In this document: piece by piece, positions 14,330 through 22,277 of the stretch | How positions within the stretch are numbered: position 1 is the stretch's first letter | How the letters are laid out: the number at the start of each line of letters is the position of its first letter | NCBI GenBank assembly: GCA_963726335.1 | Contig: CAVSCD010000011.1 | Location: forward strand, 283,540-347,539 | Direction of reading: 5' to 3' | Origin: Candidatus Aminicenantes bacterium | GTDB lineage: Bacteria; Acidobacteriota; Aminicenantia; Aminicenantales; UBA8522 | Length of the DNA stretch: 64,000 nucleotides | The notes under the pieces: model-generated | The model's database searches: none | Told to the model about the DNA's origin: nothing | Seen by the model: only the letters and a program-made list of their open reading frames with translations | Position numbers and translations under genes: made by a program

Positions 14330-14641
14330 TCACTTGCCGCCGGCTTCGGCGCCCACGGTGATCTGGTCCTTGAGCTGACCGAACACCTTCTCGCCGATGC
14401 CCCGCACCTTCATGAGATCCTCGACCCGCTTGAAGTTTCCGTTCTCCTTCCGATAGTCGAGGATCCGCTGGGCGATCGCCGGCCCCACCCCCGGCAGCTT
14501 CTGCAGCTCATCCGACTGGGCGGTGTTGATGTTGATCTTTTGGTCCGGCGACTTGGACCCGGCCTGGAGAGAGAACAGCGGCTGGAGGACGAGGCCGAGG
14601 ACGAGGGCCGCGGCCAGCGCTCCGATCTTAAAGTGTTTCAT
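14330..14641 (-). CDS. comEA: ComEA-like helix-hairpin-helix DNA-binding protein, exported
   Basis: Signal peptide; ININTA...LPGVG...RILDYR...GNFK...VRGIG. Confidence 0.9.
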   Translation of the reverse strand: MKHFKIGALAAALVLGLVLQPLFSLQAGSKSPDQKININTAQSDELQKLPGVGPAIAQRILDYRKENGNFKRVEDLMKVRGIGEKVFGQLKDQITVGAEAGGK

Positions 14642-14824
14642 GAAAACCTCCTTTCACCGTCCTCTCATGCAACCGCGGGGCCAAACCCGAGCTTCTGCTA
14701 TTCCGAGAATTATCTGCAGTTTAGACCATGGCGTTCGACTCCCACAGCAACCACTCGTTAACCTCCCGACCCCCGCAACGTCAACCTCTATTACCGAAGG
14801 CCTGTCGGTCAACGGATGCGCTGT

Positions 14825-15095
14825 GCCTGCCCTGGGGGAGTGGGCGGCCAGCCGAAGCGGCCATTGAAGGTTTAGCCCGATCAAAGCGCAATTCGAGGGA
14901 ACCCCGGGTTTTGGGCGGCGAGTATGTATTGAGCTCGAAAGAGAATTAGGAAACGCCACCCGATAAACACCCAATATCATCGAAGCGAAAGGGACTGATT
15001 ATGCGAGTTACGGAGCCGCCGAGAATTGCGTTTTGAGAGCGGCGTTAAAAACCTGAACGGGAGCGAGGCGGGTTGCCCACTCCCTCAAGGCAGGC
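14825..15095 (+). ncRNA. Candidate structured ncRNA or non-autonomous fold-back element (family II, copy A)
   Basis: 25-bp terminal arms; conserved blocks shared with the reverse complement of 20524-20776. Confidence 0.55.
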
Positions 15096-15101
15096 GGCCA
15101 A

Positions 15102-15995
15102 TTACGACCGGGGATGGCTTTTGCGGTAGACGCCCATGAGGTGCCCGAGGTCGAGGTGGGTGTACTTCTGCGTCGTGGCCAGGCTCTCGTGTCCGAGGAG
15201 TTCCTGGATGACCCGGAGGTCGGCGCCCCGGCTCAGCAGGTGCGAGGCGAACGAGTGCCGGAGCGAGTGCGGGCTGATCTTCCGGCGGACGGCGGTCTGG
15301 CGAATATACTTGTCGACGATCCGCTCGACCGAGCGGGTGGTGATGCGCCGCCCTTTGTAATTCAGGAAGAGGGCGTAATCGCCCGGCTTCTCGCCCAGTA
15401 GCGCCGCCCGCGCGGTCAGGTAGCCCTTGACCCGCTCCCGGGCGATGGCGCCGAACGGGACGATCCGCTCCTTTTTGCCCTTGCCGCGAACCCGGACGAG
15501 CCTGTCGGCCAGGTGGATGTCTTCGAGGTTGATGCCGACGAGCTCGCTCACCCGGATCCCCGTCGCGTAGAGGAGCTCGAGCGCGGCCTTGTCGCGGAGG
15601 TCGAGCGGCTTTGTCGAGGGCGGCATGTCCAGGAAGCCGGCCATCTCCTCTTCCGTGAGGAACGACGGGACGAGCTGCTCCTGCTTCGGCGTCGCCACGA
15701 GCGAGGCCGGATTCTCGGCCGTCCAGCCGCGCTTCAGCGCGTACCGGTAGAACGAGCGAACGGCGGCCAGCTTCCGGGCGAGCGAGGATTTCTTCAGCCG
15801 TCTTTCGTGGAGCTCGGCCATGAACCCCCGGATTTGGAGGTTGTCGGCGTTACGGAGCGAAACCCGGCGGACGTCGAGGTAGCCGATGAACTGCCCGAGG
15901 TCCCGCTGGTAGCCCGAGACGGTGTGAACGGACGCGTTCCTCTCGTGCCGGAGCTGGTCAAGGAATTCGTCCAGGTCCTTAAGGTCTCGCTTCAT
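15102..15995 (-). CDS. xerC: Tyrosine recombinase XerC
   Basis: LLYATGIRVSEL, GKGKKER, HSLRHSFASHLL, LLGHESLATTQKY; dprA-topA-xerC synteny. Confidence 0.92.
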   Translation of the reverse strand: MKRDLKDLDEFLDQLRHERNASVHTVSGYQRDLGQFIGYLDVRRVSLRNADNLQIRGFMAELHERRLKKSSLARKLAAVRSFYRYALKRGWTAENPASLVATPKQEQLVPSFLTEEEMAGFLDMPPSTKPLDLRDKAALELLYATGIRVSELVGINLEDIHLADRLVRVRGKGKKERIVPFGAIARERVKGYLTARAALLGEKPGDYALFLNYKGRRITTRSVERIVDKYIRQTAVRRKISPHSLRHSFASHLLSRGADLRVIQELLGHESLATTQKYTHLDLGHLMGVYRKSHPRS

Positions 15996-18252
15996 CCTTG
16001 CCGGTGTCCGGGGGCTTTTCCGGCCCCGCGCCCTCGGCGGCCTCGGCCAAGGTTTCCTTGTAGCCGCACTTTTCGTCGGGACAATAGAGCAGGGCGGTCC
16101 CGCCCTTCTGTTTCTTCCGGAAGAGCACAGGCTTGGCGCACTTCGGGCAGGCCTGGCTGAGCGGCTCGTCCCAGCTCGCGAACCGGCACTTGGGGAAACG
16201 GCCGCAGCCGTAGAAGAACTTCCCCCGTCTCGTCGTCCGCTTCAAGAGCATGCCCCCGCAGCCGGCCGGGCAGGCGATGCCGGTCTCCACCTTCTCACTC
16301 ACTTTCTTCTGGATGTACTTGCATTCCGGATATTTGGAGCAGGCCACGAACAGTCCGTAACGGCCGCGCCGCCTGACGAGCTGGGCGCCGCAAGTGGGGC
16401 ACTTTTCCTCCAGGGGCGTGACCTCGGGCTTGGTGAGACTCTGCTTGAACTTGCATTCGGGGTAGCCGGAGCACGCCTTGAACTGTCCGAACCGTCCCGT
16501 CCGGATGACCAGCGGCTTGGCGCACTCGGGGCATTTCTCGTCCACGGGGATCCCCTCGCCCCTGACGCTCTTGGCCTCGCCCGCCTTGGCCAGGTCCTGG
16601 CTCAGGAGGACATGGTACCGGCGGAGCGTTGTCAGCCAGTCCTCCTCGCCCTCGCTGATCTTGTCGAGCGCCTCCTCCATCAGGGCCGTGAACTTGTATT
16701 CCATCAGGTCGGCGAAGTTGGCCACCAGGAAGTCGGTGACGAACATCCCGAGCTCGGTCGGGACGAACTTGCCCTTGTCCTTGATGACATAGACCCGGTC
16801 CTGGAGCGTGCCGATGATCGGCGCATAGGTGCTCGGCCGCCCGATGCCTTTCGCTTCGAGCTCCTTGACCAGGCTGCCCTCGGTGTACCGCGGCGGGGGC
16901 TGCGTGAAATTCTGCTTGGTCTCGAGGTCGAGGAGCTTGAGCGTCTCGCCCTTCTGCGCTTTGGGGAGCTGCGCGGTCTCCTTGTCCAGGCTCGGGTAGA
17001 CGACGAAGTAGCCGTTGAACCGGATGACCTCTCCCTTGGCCTTGAACTCGCACCGGTCGGCCATGATGGTGAAATCGGTTTCCTCGACCACGGCCGGGCT
17101 CATCTGCGAGGCGAGGAACTTGTTCCAGATCAGCTTGTAGAGGTCGTACTCTTCCTTCTTGAGATAGGGCTTCACGGCATCGGGGGGGAGATCGAGCGAG
17201 GTCGGCCGGATCGCCTCGTGGGCGTCCTGCGACTTCTTCTTGTTCTTGTAAACGTTCGGATGCGGCGGGACGTAGGCGGCCGAGAAGCTGTCATGGATAT
17301 GCTTCCTGGCCCCGGCCAGGGCGGCCTCCGAGATCCGGACCGAATCCGTGCGCATGTAAGTGATCAGGCCGACGAGGCCGCGTTCGCCGATCGGCATCCC
17401 CTCGTAAAGCTTCTGGGCCACGAACATCGTCTTCTTGACGGGAAACCCGAGGAGCCGAAAGCTCTCCTGCTGCAGGGTGCTCGTGATGTAGGGCGGTCCG
17501 GGATGCCGCTTCTTCTCCCGGACGGTGACGTCCGCGAGGATGAACGGCTGCTGCTTGAGGCCGGCGACGAGCTCCTGCGCCCGGGCGCCCTCCGCCACCT
17601 TGAATTTCTTGCCGTCGAGCTTGACGAGGTTGGCCTTGAAGGGCGGCGGCTCCGACGCTTCGAGCTGGGCGTTGACGGACCAGTACTCCTCGGCGACGAA
17701 GGCCTTGATTTCCTTCTCCCGCTCGCAGATGAGCCGGAGGGCGATCGACTGCACCCGCCCGGCGCTCAGCCCCTTCCCGATCTTTTTCCAGAGCAGGGGG
17801 CTGATCTGGTAGCCGACGAGCCGGTCCAGGATCCGGCGGGTCTGCTGGGCCTGGAACATGTTCTCATCGAGCGCCCCGAGGTGCTCGAAGGCTTCCTCGA
17901 CGGCGGTCTGGGTGATCTCGTGAAAGACGGCCCGGCGGATGTTCGGGTTGTCCGCCTGCAGGAGCTGGCTGAGGTGCCAGCTGATGGCCTCGCCCTCCCG
18001 GTCGGGGTCGGCGGCCAGGATGACCGCGGTCGATTCCTTGGCGGCCTTCTGGAGCTCGGCGACCGTCTTTTTCCGGTCCGGGAGGACGACGTAGGTGGGG
18101 GCGAAATCATGGTCGACGTCCACGCCGAGCTTGCTCTTGGGGAGGTCCCGGATATGCCCCATCGACGCCTTGACGACATAGCGCGGGCCCAGGTAACGGT
18201 TGATGGTGTGCGCCTTGGCGGGCGATTCCACGATCACGAGTGACTTATCCAT
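15979..18252 (-). CDS. topA: DNA topoisomerase I with C-terminal Zn ribbons
   Basis: IVESPAKA, DPDREGEAI, SAGRVQS, LITYMRTDS, C4 zinc-finger repeats. Confidence 0.97.
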   Translation of the reverse strand: MDKSLVIVESPAKAHTINRYLGPRYVVKASMGHIRDLPKSKLGVDVDHDFAPTYVVLPDRKKTVAELQKAAKESTAVILAADPDREGEAISWHLSQLLQADNPNIRRAVFHEITQTAVEEAFEHLGALDENMFQAQQTRRILDRLVGYQISPLLWKKIGKGLSAGRVQSIALRLICEREKEIKAFVAEEYWSVNAQLEASEPPPFKANLVKLDGKKFKVAEGARAQELVAGLKQQPFILADVTVREKKRHPGPPYITSTLQQESFRLLGFPVKKTMFVAQKLYEGMPIGERGLVGLITYMRTDSVRISEAALAGARKHIHDSFSAAYVPPHPNVYKNKKKSQDAHEAIRPTSLDLPPDAVKPYLKKEEYDLYKLIWNKFLASQMSPAVVEETDFTIMADRCEFKAKGEVIRFNGYFVVYPSLDKETAQLPKAQKGETLKLLDLETKQNFTQPPPRYTEGSLVKELEAKGIGRPSTYAPIIGTLQDRVYVIKDKGKFVPTELGMFVTDFLVANFADLMEYKFTALMEEALDKISEGEEDWLTTLRRYHVLLSQDLAKAGEAKSVRGEGIPVDEKCPECAKPLVIRTGRFGQFKACSGYPECKFKQSLTKPEVTPLEEKCPTCGAQLVRRRGRYGLFVACSKYPECKYIQKKVSEKVETGIACPAGCGGMLLKRTTRRGKFFYGCGRFPKCRFASWDEPLSQACPKCAKPVLFRKKQKGGTALLYCPDEKCGYKETLAEAAEGAGPEKPPDTGKDEARP

Positions 18253-19362
18253 TTAGAGACTCCTCTGAAAGCACTTGCCCGGCGCCTGCCGAACGAGACC
18301 CTTGAGCTCCAGGCTGAGCAGCCGCGCCAAAACCTCGGAAACCGAAACGTCCGTCGTCTCGACGAGCTCGTCGATATGGGTGAGTGCGTCCGTCTTCAAT
18401 CCGTCAAAGATCTTTTTCTCCTCGGGGCTCAACTCGGGGCTCGCCTCGCGGCCCCCTTTTTTCGAGGACAGCAGCTTCTCCCGGAGCGGAGTCGGCATCT
18501 CTTCTACCACATCTACCCATGTTTCGACAAGCTTGGCGCCGGTTTTGATCAGCCAGTTGGCGCCGCCGCTCAGGGCCGAAGTGATGTTCCCGGGAACGGC
18601 CATGACCTCGCGGTTCTGCTCCAAAGCGAGACGCGCGGTGATGAGCGAGCCGCTCCGCCGCGTGGCCTCGACGACCACGACGCCGAGCGTCAGGCCGCTG
18701 ATGATCCTGTTCCGGAGTGGGAAGCGATAGGCCAGCGGCCGGGCGTCCGGCGGGAACTCGGTGACCACCGCGCCCGTCCCGGCGATCTTCCGGAAAAGGT
18801 CCTTATTTTCCTTGGGGTAGACCTCGTCGAACCCCGACCCCAGCACGGCGACCGTACGGCCCGCCTGGAGCGCGCCCCAATGGGCCAGCGAATCGATCCC
18901 GACGGCCAGGCCGCTGACGACGACCAACCCGGCCGCGGCGAGATCGCTGGCCAGCCGCTCGGCGACGGCCCGGCCGAACGGGGTTGGCCGGCGGGCGCCG
19001 ACCACGGCCACCGCGGGCTCGGACAGGACCGCCGGGTCGCCGGCGACATACAGGACAGACGGCGGGTCGAAGATCTCGCGGAGGAGCGCGGGATAGGCTT
19101 CCTCGTCGCGTGTCAGGAGGCGCCAGCCATTTTTTTCGGCAGTCGCCAGGACCCGGGCGGCATCGTCGAGGAGCCTAGGGGAAGCGAGCGCCCGCGCCCT
19201 CTCTTTCTCCAGGCCCAGCGATTCGAGCTCCCGGGCCGAGGCGCCGCAGACGTTTTCGGGCGAGCCGAAGCGCTCCAGGATTCGCTGGGCCGGGCGGAGA
19301 CAATCCGAAAGGACGATATTCAGGGCCACCCAGTAAACCCGCCGGTCGGCGGTCGATCTCAT
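18253..19362 (-). CDS. dprA: DNA-protecting protein DprA
   Basis: AVVGAR, VSGLAVGID, FPLRNRIISG, SGSLITA, C-terminal wHTH. Confidence 0.95.
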   Translation of the reverse strand: MRSTADRRVYWVALNIVLSDCLRPAQRILERFGSPENVCGASARELESLGLEKERARALASPRLLDDAARVLATAEKNGWRLLTRDEEAYPALLREIFDPPSVLYVAGDPAVLSEPAVAVVGARRPTPFGRAVAERLASDLAAAGLVVVSGLAVGIDSLAHWGALQAGRTVAVLGSGFDEVYPKENKDLFRKIAGTGAVVTEFPPDARPLAYRFPLRNRIISGLTLGVVVVEATRRSGSLITARLALEQNREVMAVPGNITSALSGGANWLIKTGAKLVETWVDVVEEMPTPLREKLLSSKKGGREASPELSPEEKKIFDGLKTDALTHIDELVETTDVSVSEVLARLLSLELKGLVRQAPGKCFQRSL

Positions 19363-19549
19363 GAAGGGTCTCTTTCTAACGCTCCAATACTCTGGACGCT
19401 CGGGGCCCGGCGGTCCGTCTCAGCGGCGTCCGACTAGAGTCCCGGAGTCGCGGACGGGTCCTTCGGCTTTCCCCTTTCCTGAATGTCCTGCCGGGTCCCG
19501 GCCCGGCCCGTCCGGGCCCGGTTTCATGGCTTGATCCAACCCTAGGCGA

Positions 19550-20419
19550 TCACCTGCAGAGCTCCGGCGGGATGGCGAACACGGGCCGGTCGCTGTAGGA
19601 GATGACCTTCTCCGTGGTGCTCCCGAGGATCAGGCGCCCGAGCGCGCCGATGCAGGTCTCGATGACGATGAGGTCGCAGTGGCGTTCCGCCGAATACTCG
19701 ACGATGCCGTGGACGGCGGTGACCGCGCGGATGACATCATGCTCCACCGTGATGTCCTTGCCTTCAAGCGTCGCCTTCTTCTTGAACTTGGCCAGGACGG
19801 ATTCGAACATATCGTCCACCATCCGGAACTCGTGTCCGTGGAGCTCAAGAACGTACAGGAAGGTCAGCGATGCGGACAGGCCCTTGGCCACCTTCCAGGC
19901 ATACTCTCTCTCAATATCTTCCTTCTTGCCGAAGTCCGTGGGGACGAGGATTTTCTTGATCTCCGGCCCGGATTTTCTCTTCTTGGTCACGAGCACGGGG
20001 ACATGGGAATGCCGCAGGACATGGTTGGCCACGCTGCCGACCAGCGGGTTGCCCAGCTGGCTCTCGCCCGTCTTGCCCATGACGATCAGGTCGGCCTTCT
20101 CGGCTTCCGCTGTCTCCAGGATCTTCTTTGCCGGCGAGCCCTGGGCGACGAGGGACTTCTTGAAACTGACGCCCTTCTCTTTCCCGGCGTCCTCGAGCCG
20201 GGCCTGGGCTTCCTGCTTGATATCGTCGGTCCGGCGGATCATCTCCTGGATGAGGGCCGGATACTCATTATAGAGGGCCAGGCTGAAGTCGGGCGTGACA
20301 TTGAGCGCCGTGATCTCGGCGCCGAAGGCCCGGGCGAAGGTCTGGGCATAGGCGAGGGCGGCCTGGCCTTCGTCCGAAAAGTCGGTCGCCCAGAGAATAT
20401 TCTTGATGAATTCTTTCAT
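19550..20419 (-). CDS. Tandem universal stress protein
   Basis: ILWATDFS, DLIVMGKTG, VGSVA, ILVPTDF, LGSTTEKV; start at MKEFIK. Confidence 0.92.
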   Translation of the reverse strand: MKEFIKNILWATDFSDEGQAALAYAQTFARAFGAEITALNVTPDFSLALYNEYPALIQEMIRRTDDIKQEAQARLEDAGKEKGVSFKKSLVAQGSPAKKILETAEAEKADLIVMGKTGESQLGNPLVGSVANHVLRHSHVPVLVTKKRKSGPEIKKILVPTDFGKKEDIEREYAWKVAKGLSASLTFLYVLELHGHEFRMVDDMFESVLAKFKKKATLEGKDITVEHDVIRAVTAVHGIVEYSAERHCDLIVIETCIGALGRLILGSTTEKVISYSDRPVFAIPPELCR

Positions 20420-20523
20420 GCGGACTCTCCTCCTAGGGGAAATCGCGGCCGGACGTCCGATCCCCCGCCGGCGATTATCACTATAACCCGCCTTCTGCCT
20501 CATGGCAAGAAGAGGATCGGGCA

Positions 20524-20776
20524 CGATCAACCGCTATCGTCCTTGCTCCCATTCGGGTTTTTAACGCCGTTCACTCAACGCTCGCCTCGGCGGCTGCGTA
20601 ACTCGCGTCTTAGATTCACTCATCATCACGTTGATTCTCTTTGTTTTTCTCGCGGATTTTCCCATCTTCGTTTCGAGCTCAATACATACTCGCCGCTCCA
20701 AAGGCAGAGTTCCCTCGCCGAGCATTTCGCGAAGGCTAAACCCTCAATGGTCGCGACGGCCAATAGCGGTCGATCG
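20524..20776 (-). ncRNA. Candidate structured ncRNA or fold-back element (family II, copy B)
   Basis: 16-bp terminal arms fully paired (2 G-U) on the minus strand; shares 26-nt GCGGCGAGTATGTATTGAGCTCGAAA and other blocks with copy A. Confidence 0.55.
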
Positions 20777-20823
20777 TTCAGGCCCCCCAACTTCTTCTGT
20801 CTATATTATTAAATCCGAAGAGG

Positions 20824-22134
20824 TTACCGGCCCATGAGGACGGAGCTGCCGGTGAAGAAGGTCCCGGCGACGGCGGCCGTCATCAGCCCGACCAGGGTCG
20901 CCGCGACGAGCGCCCGGAACCCGAGCCGCGAGAGGTCGCGGTACCGGCTCGGCGCCAGCGCCCCCACGCCGCCGACGAAGATGGCGAGCGAGGCCACGTG
21001 GGCGAAGCCGCAGATGGCATAGGAGGCGATCAGGGCCGAGCGGGGGTTGCGCAGAGTGCCCCCGGCCATGAGCTGCGCCAGGTGCTGGAAGGAAGCGACC
21101 TCGGTCGCCACGGTCCGTTCGCCGACGATCCGGGCGACCGCCGCCGCGTCAGCCGGAGGAACGCCGGTGACAAGGACGAACGGATAGAAAAGGTAGCCCA
21201 GGAACGTCCGGAACGACCACTCCACCTGCCAGCCGAGCCAGCCGTTGAGGTAGCCGCCGAACCACCCGAGAACGAGGTCGAGCAGGGCCAGAATGCCCAG
21301 GAAAGACAGGAGCAGGGTGATGATCCCGCCGAGAAGCTGCAGCCCGCTTTTCGATCCGTCGATGATGGCCAGGATCAGGTTGTCCTGTCGATCGTAGTGC
21401 GGTTTGATATCCACGCCCAGGGTCAGGGGAGTGCCGGTCTCGGGCATCATCAGCTTGGAGATGACCAGCGTCGCCGGCGCCGCCAAGACCGACGCCGAGA
21501 CGAGATGGCCCGCGATCGTCGGCATTTGACTCTGCAGCAGAAAGACGTAGACGGCCAGGACGGTCGAAGCGATGGTCGACATGCCGGCTGTCAGGATGGT
21601 CGTCAGCTCCGAGCGGGTCATGTCCGCCAGGTGGGGCCGGACCGTCAGGGACGATTCGACGCCGACGAAGATCTCGCTCGAGACGCAGAGCGACTCCGCG
21701 CCGCTCACCCTCATGAGCCGGGTGAAGACGCGGGCGAAGAGCCGGATGAAGAAGGGCATGATGCCCAGGTAGTAAAGGACGCCGATCAGGGCGGCGAAGA
21801 AGATGATCGTCGAGAGCCCCTGGAAGGCCAGGATATAGCCGAGCGACGTTTCGCCGCCCTCGCCCGTGGCGCCCGGAGGCAGGGCCAGCCGGCCGAAGAC
21901 GAAGCGCGTTCCGGCCTGGGCGCTGTCGAGGACCTTGACGACGACTTGGTTGACGAACAGGAAGATCTTCGTTCCCGCCGGCACGACGAAGATGAAGAAG
22001 GCGAACAGGAACTGGAGGCCGATCCCCCAGAGGAGGACCCGCCAGTTCACGACCTTCCGGTTCGCCGAAATCAGCCAGGCGAACCCGGCGATGACGAAGA
22101 TCCCGAGGAAGCTCACCAGGTTATAGGTTTCCAT
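20824..22134 (-). CDS. nupC: Concentrative nucleoside transporter (NupC/CNT family)
   Basis: WGIGLQF, IIFFAALI..LYYLG, SGAES, FVG, GMSTIA, ICGFA. Confidence 0.9.
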   Translation of the reverse strand: METYNLVSFLGIFVIAGFAWLISANRKVVNWRVLLWGIGLQFLFAFFIFVVPAGTKIFLFVNQVVVKVLDSAQAGTRFVFGRLALPPGATGEGGETSLGYILAFQGLSTIIFFAALIGVLYYLGIMPFFIRLFARVFTRLMRVSGAESLCVSSEIFVGVESSLTVRPHLADMTRSELTTILTAGMSTIASTVLAVYVFLLQSQMPTIAGHLVSASVLAAPATLVISKLMMPETGTPLTLGVDIKPHYDRQDNLILAIIDGSKSGLQLLGGIITLLLSFLGILALLDLVLGWFGGYLNGWLGWQVEWSFRTFLGYLFYPFVLVTGVPPADAAAVARIVGERTVATEVASFQHLAQLMAGGTLRNPRSALIASYAICGFAHVASLAIFVGGVGALAPSRYRDLSRLGFRALVAATLVGLMTAAVAGTFFTGSSVLMGR

Positions 22135-22213
22135 GTTTCGCCCTTGTTTCCTGATCACGGGTCCTGTCACGGCGCGCCCCTGTCCGTCCTCGCGCCTCAC
22201 CCGTCAAGAGAGG

Positions 22214-22258
22214 GGTCCCCGTCGCTCCGGGCGGGCAGGGGCTGGCGCCGTGCCACCC
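22214..22258 (-). repeat. REP-like 45-bp repeat (family IV)
   Basis: 42/45 identity to 8547-8591. Confidence 0.8.
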
Positions 22259-22277
22259 CTGATCAGGGACAGTAGTT

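Follow-up and report, generated by a model that had tools for sequence, protein, structure and literature searches.

Long RNA rods interrupted by internal loops are known from 6S RNA, HEARO/omega RNA and bridge RNA, some of which are multi-copy and associated with mobile elements. Comparable folds occur in bacterial MITEs, transposable elements of the miniature inverted-repeat type, among them Correia/NEMIS of Neisseria, ERIC, Chunjie of Geobacter and the QMITEs of Coxiella, which form long hairpins (PMC10969869). In the accessible parts of that source, they are described as small, non-coding, multi-copy elements with terminal inverted repeats (TIRs) and target duplications, often lying just upstream of genes and predicted to yield stable stem-loop transcripts, whose old copies shed TIRs and direct repeats to become REP-like and which occur as inversion and size variants. 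MITEAba12 of Acinetobacter, a 113-bp element derived from an ISAba12-type insertion sequence (IS), is tied to its parent by TIR identity and 9-bp duplications; the accessible parts of PMC6382973 report AT-rich targets without a sequence rule, outward promoters and possible effects on neighbouring transcription, and describe no conserved structured cargo.

Here we describe a family from Candidatus Aminicenantes that shares the listed properties of the hairpin MITEs, and in which the combination of an order-wide structured cargo with insertion next to -35 boxes goes beyond an ordinary MITE. New to this family are a putative ISL3 partner, insertion targeted to -35 boxes and the bias towards one strand. 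In contrast to the hairpin MITEs, the internal cargo rather than the TIRs is the part most conserved across the order, this cargo exhibits compensatory evolution with a G-U excess on one strand, and insertion occurs at a fixed 9-bp distance from TTGAC, a rule that does not appear in the accessible parts of PMC10969869. The literature searched held nothing relevant on -35-adjacent targeting by MITEs or IS or on ISL3 MITEs, and nothing that joined Aminicenantes with 'miniature inverted-repeat'. A catalogued REP or MITE would have spoken against the original prediction; in kind these elements are MITEs, though none was found catalogued.

The window, the whole stretch of 64,000 nt that was analysed, comes from a genome that is 91.7% complete (G000) and contains the following features:

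14825..15095, + strand: copy A, a rod-shaped element with family-atypical closing arms and no recognisable TIR or target duplication
14940..15003, + strand: apical A-rich expansion of copy A, placed by alignment; an optional segment in the family, missing in short forms
20480..20508, - strand: sigma-70-like promoter of the Usp gene (TTGCCA, 17 nt, TATAGT), the target context, outside the element
20524..20776, - strand: copy B, a rod-shaped element with family-typical arms and no clear TIR
20605..20668, - strand: apical A-rich expansion of copy B, placed by alignment

Alignment confirmed the two predicted elements of ~260 nt on opposite strands: ordered blocks common to both, including an identical 26-nt stretch (GCGGCGAGTATGTATTGAGCTCGAAA), surround a divergent apical A-rich stretch and lie within closing arms of different sequence. 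Both copies fold into long rods, at -124.3 kcal/mol (z -6.5) for copy A and -98.6 kcal/mol (z -6.0) for copy B, and in each case 0 of 200 shuffles folded as well. The closing arms had been described as unrelated yet pairing in both copies; this is true of copy A, which keeps a perfect rod on unrelated arms, but not of copy B, whose arms are the family-typical ones with compensated changes. The covariance model R1 recovered copy A at 14842-15074 (G000:C11:298381-298613, E 5.7e-26) and copy B at 20534-20770 (G000:C11:304073-304309, E 9.8e-30). No match to the TIR regular expression lies beside copy A, and no target duplication was found at either copy. Because neither shows a TIR or a target duplication, their transposon origin rests on membership in the family. 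We favour the reading that both represent old copies within an order-wide foldback MITE family, non-autonomous and mobilised in trans by ISL3 transposases, with a fold that serves the element, and we put the probability of this whole explanation at roughly 0.7.

The surroundings of the two copies are those of housekeeping DNA, and the observation that the window shows no cognate enzyme was borne out: Pfam searches of the seven neighbouring open reading frames (ORFs) identified a nucleoside transporter, Usp, DprA, TopA, a XerC-like recombinase and a ComEA-like protein. The core of copy A is missing at the orthologous sites of a same-genus genome (G001) and of G004, and that of copy B is missing in G001, G004 and G008; at the G001 site orthologous to copy B only a short outer hairpin is left. 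The promoter of the Usp gene, which lies downstream of copy B, begins 16 nt past the end of that copy, is the sole promoter-like site within 14500-21100 and is kept at the core-less G001 site. Contigs of one metatranscriptome run (X20, RNA) gave no usable cover of copy A or B.

The family is widespread within the order. In the genome of the window, nhmmer returned 29 hits at ~27 loci, 17 of which span the model; a BLAST-type search with copy B matched 26 of 41 relatives, and R1 hits came from 93 of 151 genomes of the same order, representing 50 of 60 genera. Across a phylum sample of 151 genomes, the genome of the window alone matched (0 of the 150 others). The elements are short (255-340 bp; ~335 bp for young complete copies) and non-coding. 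A 47-codon frame in the short form was considered as a small protein and rejected, given codon-position substitutions of 64/86/43, in-frame stops and the lack of the ATG in some copies. Presence and absence differ between close genomes: among 16 loci of G001, five are empty in the genome of the window, one holds a core-less mini, two are occupied (one by another subfamily, one by an inverted copy), six contain 200-420 nt without a hit and two are rearranged. A closed genome (G020) carries ~11 near-identical copies.

Complete elements reveal the anatomy of a transposon. A two-TIR filter retained 20 of the 157 core hits found in the loci gathered at that stage, 15 of them with GGCTCT-type TIRs; the filter picks young copies, so the target rule described below holds for those. 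A complete young element can be reconstructed as follows. A TIR (GGCTCTaTGACGA..GTGTGG in G000) and a variable outer stem lead into the conserved core, whose internal loops are asymmetric and which contains a three-way junction; an apical expansion may come next, before the return strand and a second TIR complete the element. A 9-10-bp target duplication flanks the whole. Exact examples of 9-bp duplications are CAAAGTCGC and AGATCGCGG, and the copy at C10:317977 has an exact 9-bp duplication. Within the GGCTCT-type set of 15, five elements match at 9/9 positions, two have exact 10-bp repeats, one (L060) has an exact 9-bp repeat once the register is moved by one base, six match at 4-8 of 9 positions and one is without a duplication.

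Inspection of the target sites revealed a sequence rule. All 15 of 15 complete GGCTCT-type elements have TTGA at an offset of 8-10 from an end, against a background of 0.0041 per position (chance ~7e-25). TTGA(C) stands directly beside the target duplication in all 15 and usually forms the -35 box of a promoter resembling those of sigma-70; at many target sites it is followed by a spacer of 17 nt and then by a hexamer similar to TATAAT. The two one-ended ISL3 ends of GGCTC type behave like the MITEs: they adjoin 9 nt and then TTGACA or TTGGCA, 17 nt and a -10-like hexamer, TATAAT at L065 and read as TATTTT at L066. A by-eye look at elements of both TIR types found no internal sigma-70 promoter. 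Orientation relative to the adjacent -35 box is not significant (the box adjoins the 3' end of 10 elements, the 5' end of 4 and both ends of 1; p = 0.18), nor is orientation relative to flanking genes in tandem contexts (10 vs 3, from crude GC3 gene calls; p = 0.09).

These sites suggest a mode of integration for the GGCTC-type lineage in which the 9 bp that are duplicated come to lie directly against TTGAC. There TTGAC usually serves as the -35 hexamer of a promoter of sigma-70 type, and because integration abuts this hexamer, the copies would come to sit just upstream of genes. Integration is precise, and duplication of the 9 bp beside TTGAC(A) would have placed hundreds of insertions immediately upstream of promoters across an uncultured order. 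Should the transposase recognise this hexamer, or RNA polymerase holoenzyme bound to it, this would be an unusual case of promoter-homing transposition in bacteria, and the family would offer a ready-made promoter marker in Aminicenantes-type genomes. The logic would be loosely comparable to that of the yeast retrotransposons that target Pol III promoters. A stronger proposal is that the ISL3 lineage as a whole, IS and MITEs alike, homes 9 bp upstream of sigma-70 -35 boxes with a replication-orientation bias in closed genomes, and that its strand-specifically folded, order-wide cargo, acting as RNA or as a single-stranded transposition intermediate, is needed for its own spread; we regard this as speculative and, taken whole, rather doubtful.

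A candidate partner was provided by the TIRs. DDE_Tnp_ISL3 (PF01610) is encoded in 17 of 41 relatives, and full-length 1.3-kb IS with this transposase (1296-1328 bp; G040, G015 and G028) end in GGTTCTCTTCCATtt..TGTGGGT, as do the short-form MITEs, whose TIR (GGTTCTCTTCCATTTTGTGTGGGT) is near-identical to that of the IS. One ISL3 element end in G038 (GGCTC..AAAAGTGTGGT) resembles the TIR of the genome of the window, a partial and one-ended match. Unlike these IS, the family encodes no transposase and contains an unrelated structured core. At 22 transposase loci the core is absent, bar one known truncated copy, and because ISL3 IS lack it, we treat the core as cargo.

Several observations qualify the assignment. 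Searches for an ISL3 transposase in the genome of the window (91.7% complete), in G001 and in the closed G020 gave 0 matches; in G020 no long element with MITE TIRs was found, all 22 TIR hits being MITE-sized pairs or solo, and no whole IS with a GGCTCT..ATGACGA TIR was found. The ISL3 IS seen whole have 8-bp duplications in AT-rich DNA (clean at one, in G040) as opposed to 9-10 bp at GGCTCT-type MITEs, which counts against the partner. Two other transposases were rejected as partners: the only DDE_Tnp_1 gene of the genome of the window (C2) has TIRs of an unrelated kind and does no more than cut a copy short, and no TIRs resembling those of the MITEs lie near the IS256-type genes of G038. From the shared ends we infer that ISL3-family DDE transposases encoded elsewhere mobilise the element in trans, in place of the reverse transcriptase (RT), HUH, IS110 or HNH enzymes first listed as candidates.

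In this reading, what was first taken for a non-coding RNA (ncRNA) scaffold is a conserved stretch of ~165 nt that the MITE carries inside it as cargo. Its predicted structure accounts for 93.0% of cells as paired, compared with 38-51% when the partner is slid, with compensatory changes in 38 of 54 pairs; 0 of 500 shuffles reached the observed values, under controls that do not fully remove relatedness among copies. In 96 model hits, 93.9% of cells are paired and 41 of 54 pairs are compensated. Such compensatory base-pair changes are as expected of a structured RNA under selection. The G-U excess noticed in the two copies extends to the whole family (G-U 121 vs A-C 26 cells; when each genome contributes a single copy, 43 vs 7, p = 2e-7). 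In 42 of 43 copies the fold of the given strand is more stable than that of its reverse complement, the mean difference being 17.7 kcal/mol. Together, covariation and strand bias bear out the proposal of a strand-specific conserved structure with a fixed scaffold and closing stems that are free to vary.

These data bear on whether the stems are simply a by-product of palindromic DNA, formed by foldback, template switching or conversion within a hairpin without selection for any single-stranded fold. The whole element is indeed an imperfect palindrome with TIRs, its cores are inverted or deleted between the arms, individual copies drift neutrally, and the unrelated pairing arms of copy A could stem from inverted duplication of flanking DNA. 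However, a duplex or cruciform predicts no preference for G-T over A-C, at odds with the 121 vs 26 and 43 vs 7 observed, and the given strand is the more stable one in nearly every copy. Moreover, the core is not palindromic: its conserved loops are not the same on both strands, so that copying by foldback is unable to restore the core. We therefore consider a purely palindromic origin unlikely.

The level at which the fold is selected can be read from private mutations, which appear to be neutral in young copies. Singleton substitutions were counted in 35 sequences from three young clusters, over 108 columns that are paired and 122 that are unpaired. In this small sample, to which MAG assembly errors could add neutral-looking noise, those in paired columns comprised 10 to G-U, 10 to A-C and 20 others, against 41 in unpaired columns. 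Because private mutations look neutral despite covariation and strand bias, the fold seems to serve the spreading element rather than each locus: one-strand selection would keep the rod in the transposing lineage and not in each inserted copy.

The same results weigh on a function for the host, namely a structured ncRNA, for example protein-binding or regulatory and acting near promoters, that rides on the MITE, is merely distributed by transposition and has been exapted at many loci. Asymmetric loops and a three-way junction that are invariant across 50 of 60 genera, strong covariation with a G-U strand bias, the rod kept by TIR-less copies such as A, and the proximity of promoters would all fit. 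On the other hand, the singletons spare no stems and show no G-U preference, copies are not conserved at orthologous loci of same-genus genomes, cores have been deleted repeatedly to leave minis, orientation to the -35 box is not fixed, the neighbours are unrelated housekeeping genes, and no Rfam family matches. We judge a host function to be improbable, about as much as a palindromic by-product. Most likely, the fold serves the MITE, either in a transcript of the sense strand or in a single-stranded intermediate specific to one strand, and thereby aids mobilisation or tolerance of the short element. A cargo that is better conserved than the transposon ends, G-U-biased on one strand and subject to neutral decay once inserted suggests a structured nucleic acid working for the transposon. 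Order-wide conservation of asymmetric loops is unusual for the cargo of a MITE; a host function would also fit this.

The apical segment had suggested a guide or template RNA akin to bridge RNA, omega RNA or a retron, in which a length-conserved loop of 62-64 nt specifies the target. Copies A and B do recall such RNAs: each combines a rod-shaped scaffold and a variable segment of ~60 nt, and the family is multi-copy. Yet the loop is dispensable: it shrinks to ~8 nt in short forms, carries larger inserts in other copies and hardly differs between the young copies of a given subfamily. Whole copies, loops included, had no match in phage (A and B) or plasmid (B) collections, and their self matches were other copies only. 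No RT, TnpB/IscB, IS110 recombinase or HNH gene is among the seven ORFs beside A and B, and the core does not adjoin the transposases at the 22 loci. TIRs, target duplications and the TIR match to ISL3 account for mobility without a guide; these boundaries and the lack of an adjoining cognate protein gene also set the family apart from 6S RNA and the guide RNAs. Rfam offered no assignment, to HEARO or other guide RNAs, 6S, riboswitches or any other family: there were 0 hits in the window at gathering score, and those returned at E <= 10, around A and B and for a short form, were no better than chance. A guide function is thus very improbable, and little is left of the case for a candidate guide RNA or a novel ncRNA.

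In the MITE reading, copies age by losing the TIRs, as in A and B, by losing the core through palindrome deletion to leave minis, or by being struck by other repeats. The core-less minis bear the same TIRs as full copies, and one mini in the genome of the window sits where G001 holds a full copy. Little is known of why some MITEs out-compete their parent IS, and this family offers full elements, short forms and core-less minis for comparison. At copy A, a single DNA contig of X2 with 90% likeness joins position 14842 to 15093, skipping 250 nt, and may represent a core-less variant of that copy.

Both structured elements of the original prediction, copies A and B, were confirmed on the strands and at the positions listed here together with their surroundings.

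14825-15095, plus strand: copy A
20524-20776, minus strand: copy B
15102-22200, minus strand: housekeeping array (nucleoside transporter, Usp, DprA, topoisomerase I, XerC/D-like recombinase)
22157-22260: second palindromic intergenic repeat, approximately 105 nt

The alignment of the two copies reproduced the conserved blocks in the same order, the identical 26-mer, the divergent A-rich apical stretch and the differing closing arms. Each copy folds into a long rod whose stability far exceeds that of shuffled sequences (z = -6.5 for A and -6.0 for B; none of 200 shuffles as good). Rfam gave no match to either copy at the gathering score, and only chance-level matches at E <= 10. Because the surrounding array is ordinary housekeeping, the recombinase beside copy A is of the chromosomal Xer type rather than an integrase carried by an element. 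Copy B stops 16 nt short of a sigma-70-like promoter (TTGCCA, 17 nt, TATAGT) that serves the Usp gene and is the only such site in 14500-21100.

The two copies belong to a family with 29 matches at approximately 27 loci in the source genome (G000; 4.89 Mb in 15 contigs, 63% G+C; the window corresponds to C11:283540-347539), as detected by BLAST and an nhmmer profile; 17 matches span the model, and two subfamilies are told apart by the cores GCGGCGAGTATGTATTGAGCTC and GCGGCGAGGACTGTTCGAGCAG. With copy B as query, 26 of 41 relatives gave matches, from 1 to about 30 each and many of them at contig ends. R1, a covariance model with 169 positions derived from 21 short forms (elements without the A-rich apical expansion), recovered the long forms of the source genome with E down to 1.5e-32 and matched 93 of 151 genomes within the order, representing 50 of the 60 genera; across a phylum sample of 151 genomes the source genome was the sole match. 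Core-bearing records elsewhere are titled Candidatus Aminicenantes or Aminicenantales or carry generic MAG labels, with some titled Candidatus Desulfaltia and one Elusimicrobia. The latter record, a MAG assigned by its label to a different phylum, holds a weaker core copy (L074, 6295-6476, 81.7 bits), which could reflect horizontal transfer or a mis-binned contig.

The family belongs to the MITEs as exemplified by Correia, ERIC or Chunjie in a review, and its terminal inverted repeats (TIRs) assign it to ISL3. Young copies of subfamily 2 measure approximately 335 bp, have GGCTCTATGACGAtgAGTGTGG and its inverted counterpart at their ends and lie between 9-bp direct repeats, of which two (CAAAGTCGC and AGATCGCGG) are exact. 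Core-less minis of approximately 75-112 bp have the same ends as full copies, and one occupies the site that corresponds to a full copy in the same-genus genome G001. The short forms, found in low-G+C relatives, measure 255-270 bp, carry the TIR GGTTCTCTTCCATTTTGTGTGGGT and lack the A-rich apical region. All 22 TIR matches in the closed genome G020 are MITE-sized pairs or solo ends. A limited literature search found no description of the family.

Comparison with relatives revealed turnover. Both window loci are core-less in G001 (flanking genes 81-89% identical) and in members of the host family (68-80% identity in G004, G008 and G016), and at the copy-B site of G001 a short hairpin similar to the outer arms is all that remains. 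For 16 element loci of G001, the matching site in the source genome was empty in 5, held a mini in 1, contained 200-420 nt without a match in 6, was rearranged in 2 and was occupied in 2, one of the occupied sites carrying another subfamily at the same promoter and the other an element in opposite orientation. The element at L194 of G001 and that at G000:C15:232730-233056 in the source genome lie in the same convergent intergenic region in opposite orientations, reflecting either independent insertions or inversion of the core between the arms.

DDE_Tnp_ISL3 genes are present in 17 of the 41 relatives; none was found in the source genome, G001 or G020. In G040, G015, G028 and G012, complete insertion sequences (1296-1328 bp) share the TIR design of the MITEs, and the TIRs of the first three are almost identical to those of the short forms; the G040 copy has an 8-bp duplication, ATAAATAT. 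Two one-ended ISL3 ends in G038 (GGCTCATCCTTAAAAAGTGTGGTAA) resemble the GGCTCT-type TIR of the source genome. R1 found no core in 22 transposase loci save one already known truncated copy, which makes the core a cargo rather than an insertion-sequence remnant. Two other candidate partners were rejected: the IS256-type genes of G038 are unrelated, and the TIRs of DDE_Tnp_1 in the source genome are unrelated to those of the family, a copy of which this gene merely cut. This IS4/IS5-like transposase (432 aa; G000:C2:284915-285478, L067), the only DDE_Tnp_1 found in that genome, has the TIRs GGGACAG.ATCAGT..GTGTCCCA and is inserted in a family copy whose 5′ half was removed.

Screening of 157 core matches yielded 20 copies in which both TIRs were recognized by the filter, 15 of them GGCTCT-type. 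In all 15, TTGA (mostly TTGAC) begins 8-10 nt from an element end, immediately past the 9-10 bp that are duplicated. Ten copies have it at the 3′ end, four at the 5′ end on the opposite strand and one at both ends. Given a background of 0.0041 per position in crudely delimited intergenic DNA, the chance for 15 copies is approximately 7e-25. Many of these TTGA sites are followed by a 17-nt spacer and a TATAAT-like hexamer, a -35/spacer/-10-like layout also present at both GGCTC-type ISL3 ends of G038, and minis and truncated copies in the source genome have the same motif. The GGTTCTC-type insertion sequences and MITEs inspected lie at AT-rich 8-bp targets without it. No description of -35-adjacent targeting was found in a limited literature search.

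RNAalifold analysis of 43 copies from 16 genomes gave a rod of 54 pairs, 38 with compensatory changes. Paired cells made up 93.0%, versus 38-51% with slid partners, and the covariation score was 0.432 versus 0.163 in shuffles, none of 500 attaining the observed value. For 96 model-aligned matches, an alignment biased towards the model, 93.9% of cells were paired and 41 of 54 pairs compensated. All 18 pairs of the outer stem change; within the core, the asymmetric loops are invariant and there is a small side hairpin. Among non-Watson-Crick cells, 121 are G-U and 26 A-C (43 and 7 with one copy per genome, p = 2e-7), and in 42 of 43 copies the given strand forms a more stable fold than the complement, with a mean advantage of 17.7 kcal/mol. 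This strand bias is not predicted by a duplex or cruciform model and argues against purely DNA-level stems. Three young clusters formed a small sample of 35 sequences, with 108 columns paired and 122 unpaired. Singleton substitutions in the paired columns went to G-U in 10 cases, to A-C in 10 and to other combinations in 20, with 41 in unpaired columns; inserted copies thus seem to drift freely, with constraint on the still-transposing lineage.

A guide-carrying or retron-like RNA, as originally suggested, fails on the short forms without an apical region and on the housekeeping neighbours; in addition, whole copies A and B matched no phage and copy B no plasmid. We prefer to infer that the fold, via a putative sense transcript or strand-specific single-stranded intermediate, would aid mobilization or tolerance of the short element. 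In five closed genomes (G020, G040, G022, G034 and G216), 23S rRNA gene direction agreed with an origin at dnaA in all five. With the terminus assumed opposite the origin, the sense strand opposed replication in 43 of 62 copies (10 of 11 in G020; p = 0.003), a bias that may include gene-orientation effects; in G020 it holds while the TTGAC side varies. On this thin basis, the bias is a tentative sign of a connection with replication or palindrome stability.

Two further repeats were noted. A hairpin repeat of approximately 110 nt (CCGCAGGCAC...GTGCCTGCGG), with approximately 12 stand-alone relatives elsewhere in the source genome, is nested outside the window in G000:C10:318199-318329 and G000:C14:121030-121160. 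The two family copies that carry it come from different subfamilies and share the insertion position, which follows GCCGCCGAG; identity between the inserts, flanks included, is 95%. These observations suggest either site-specific nesting or recombination between copies. In the window, the 22157-22260 repeat (ends CCTGATCA...TGATCAGG) lies directly upstream of the nucleoside-transporter gene and probably represents another family of the MITE or REP-like kind, with dozens of 71-95% matches in G001, G004, G008 and G016.
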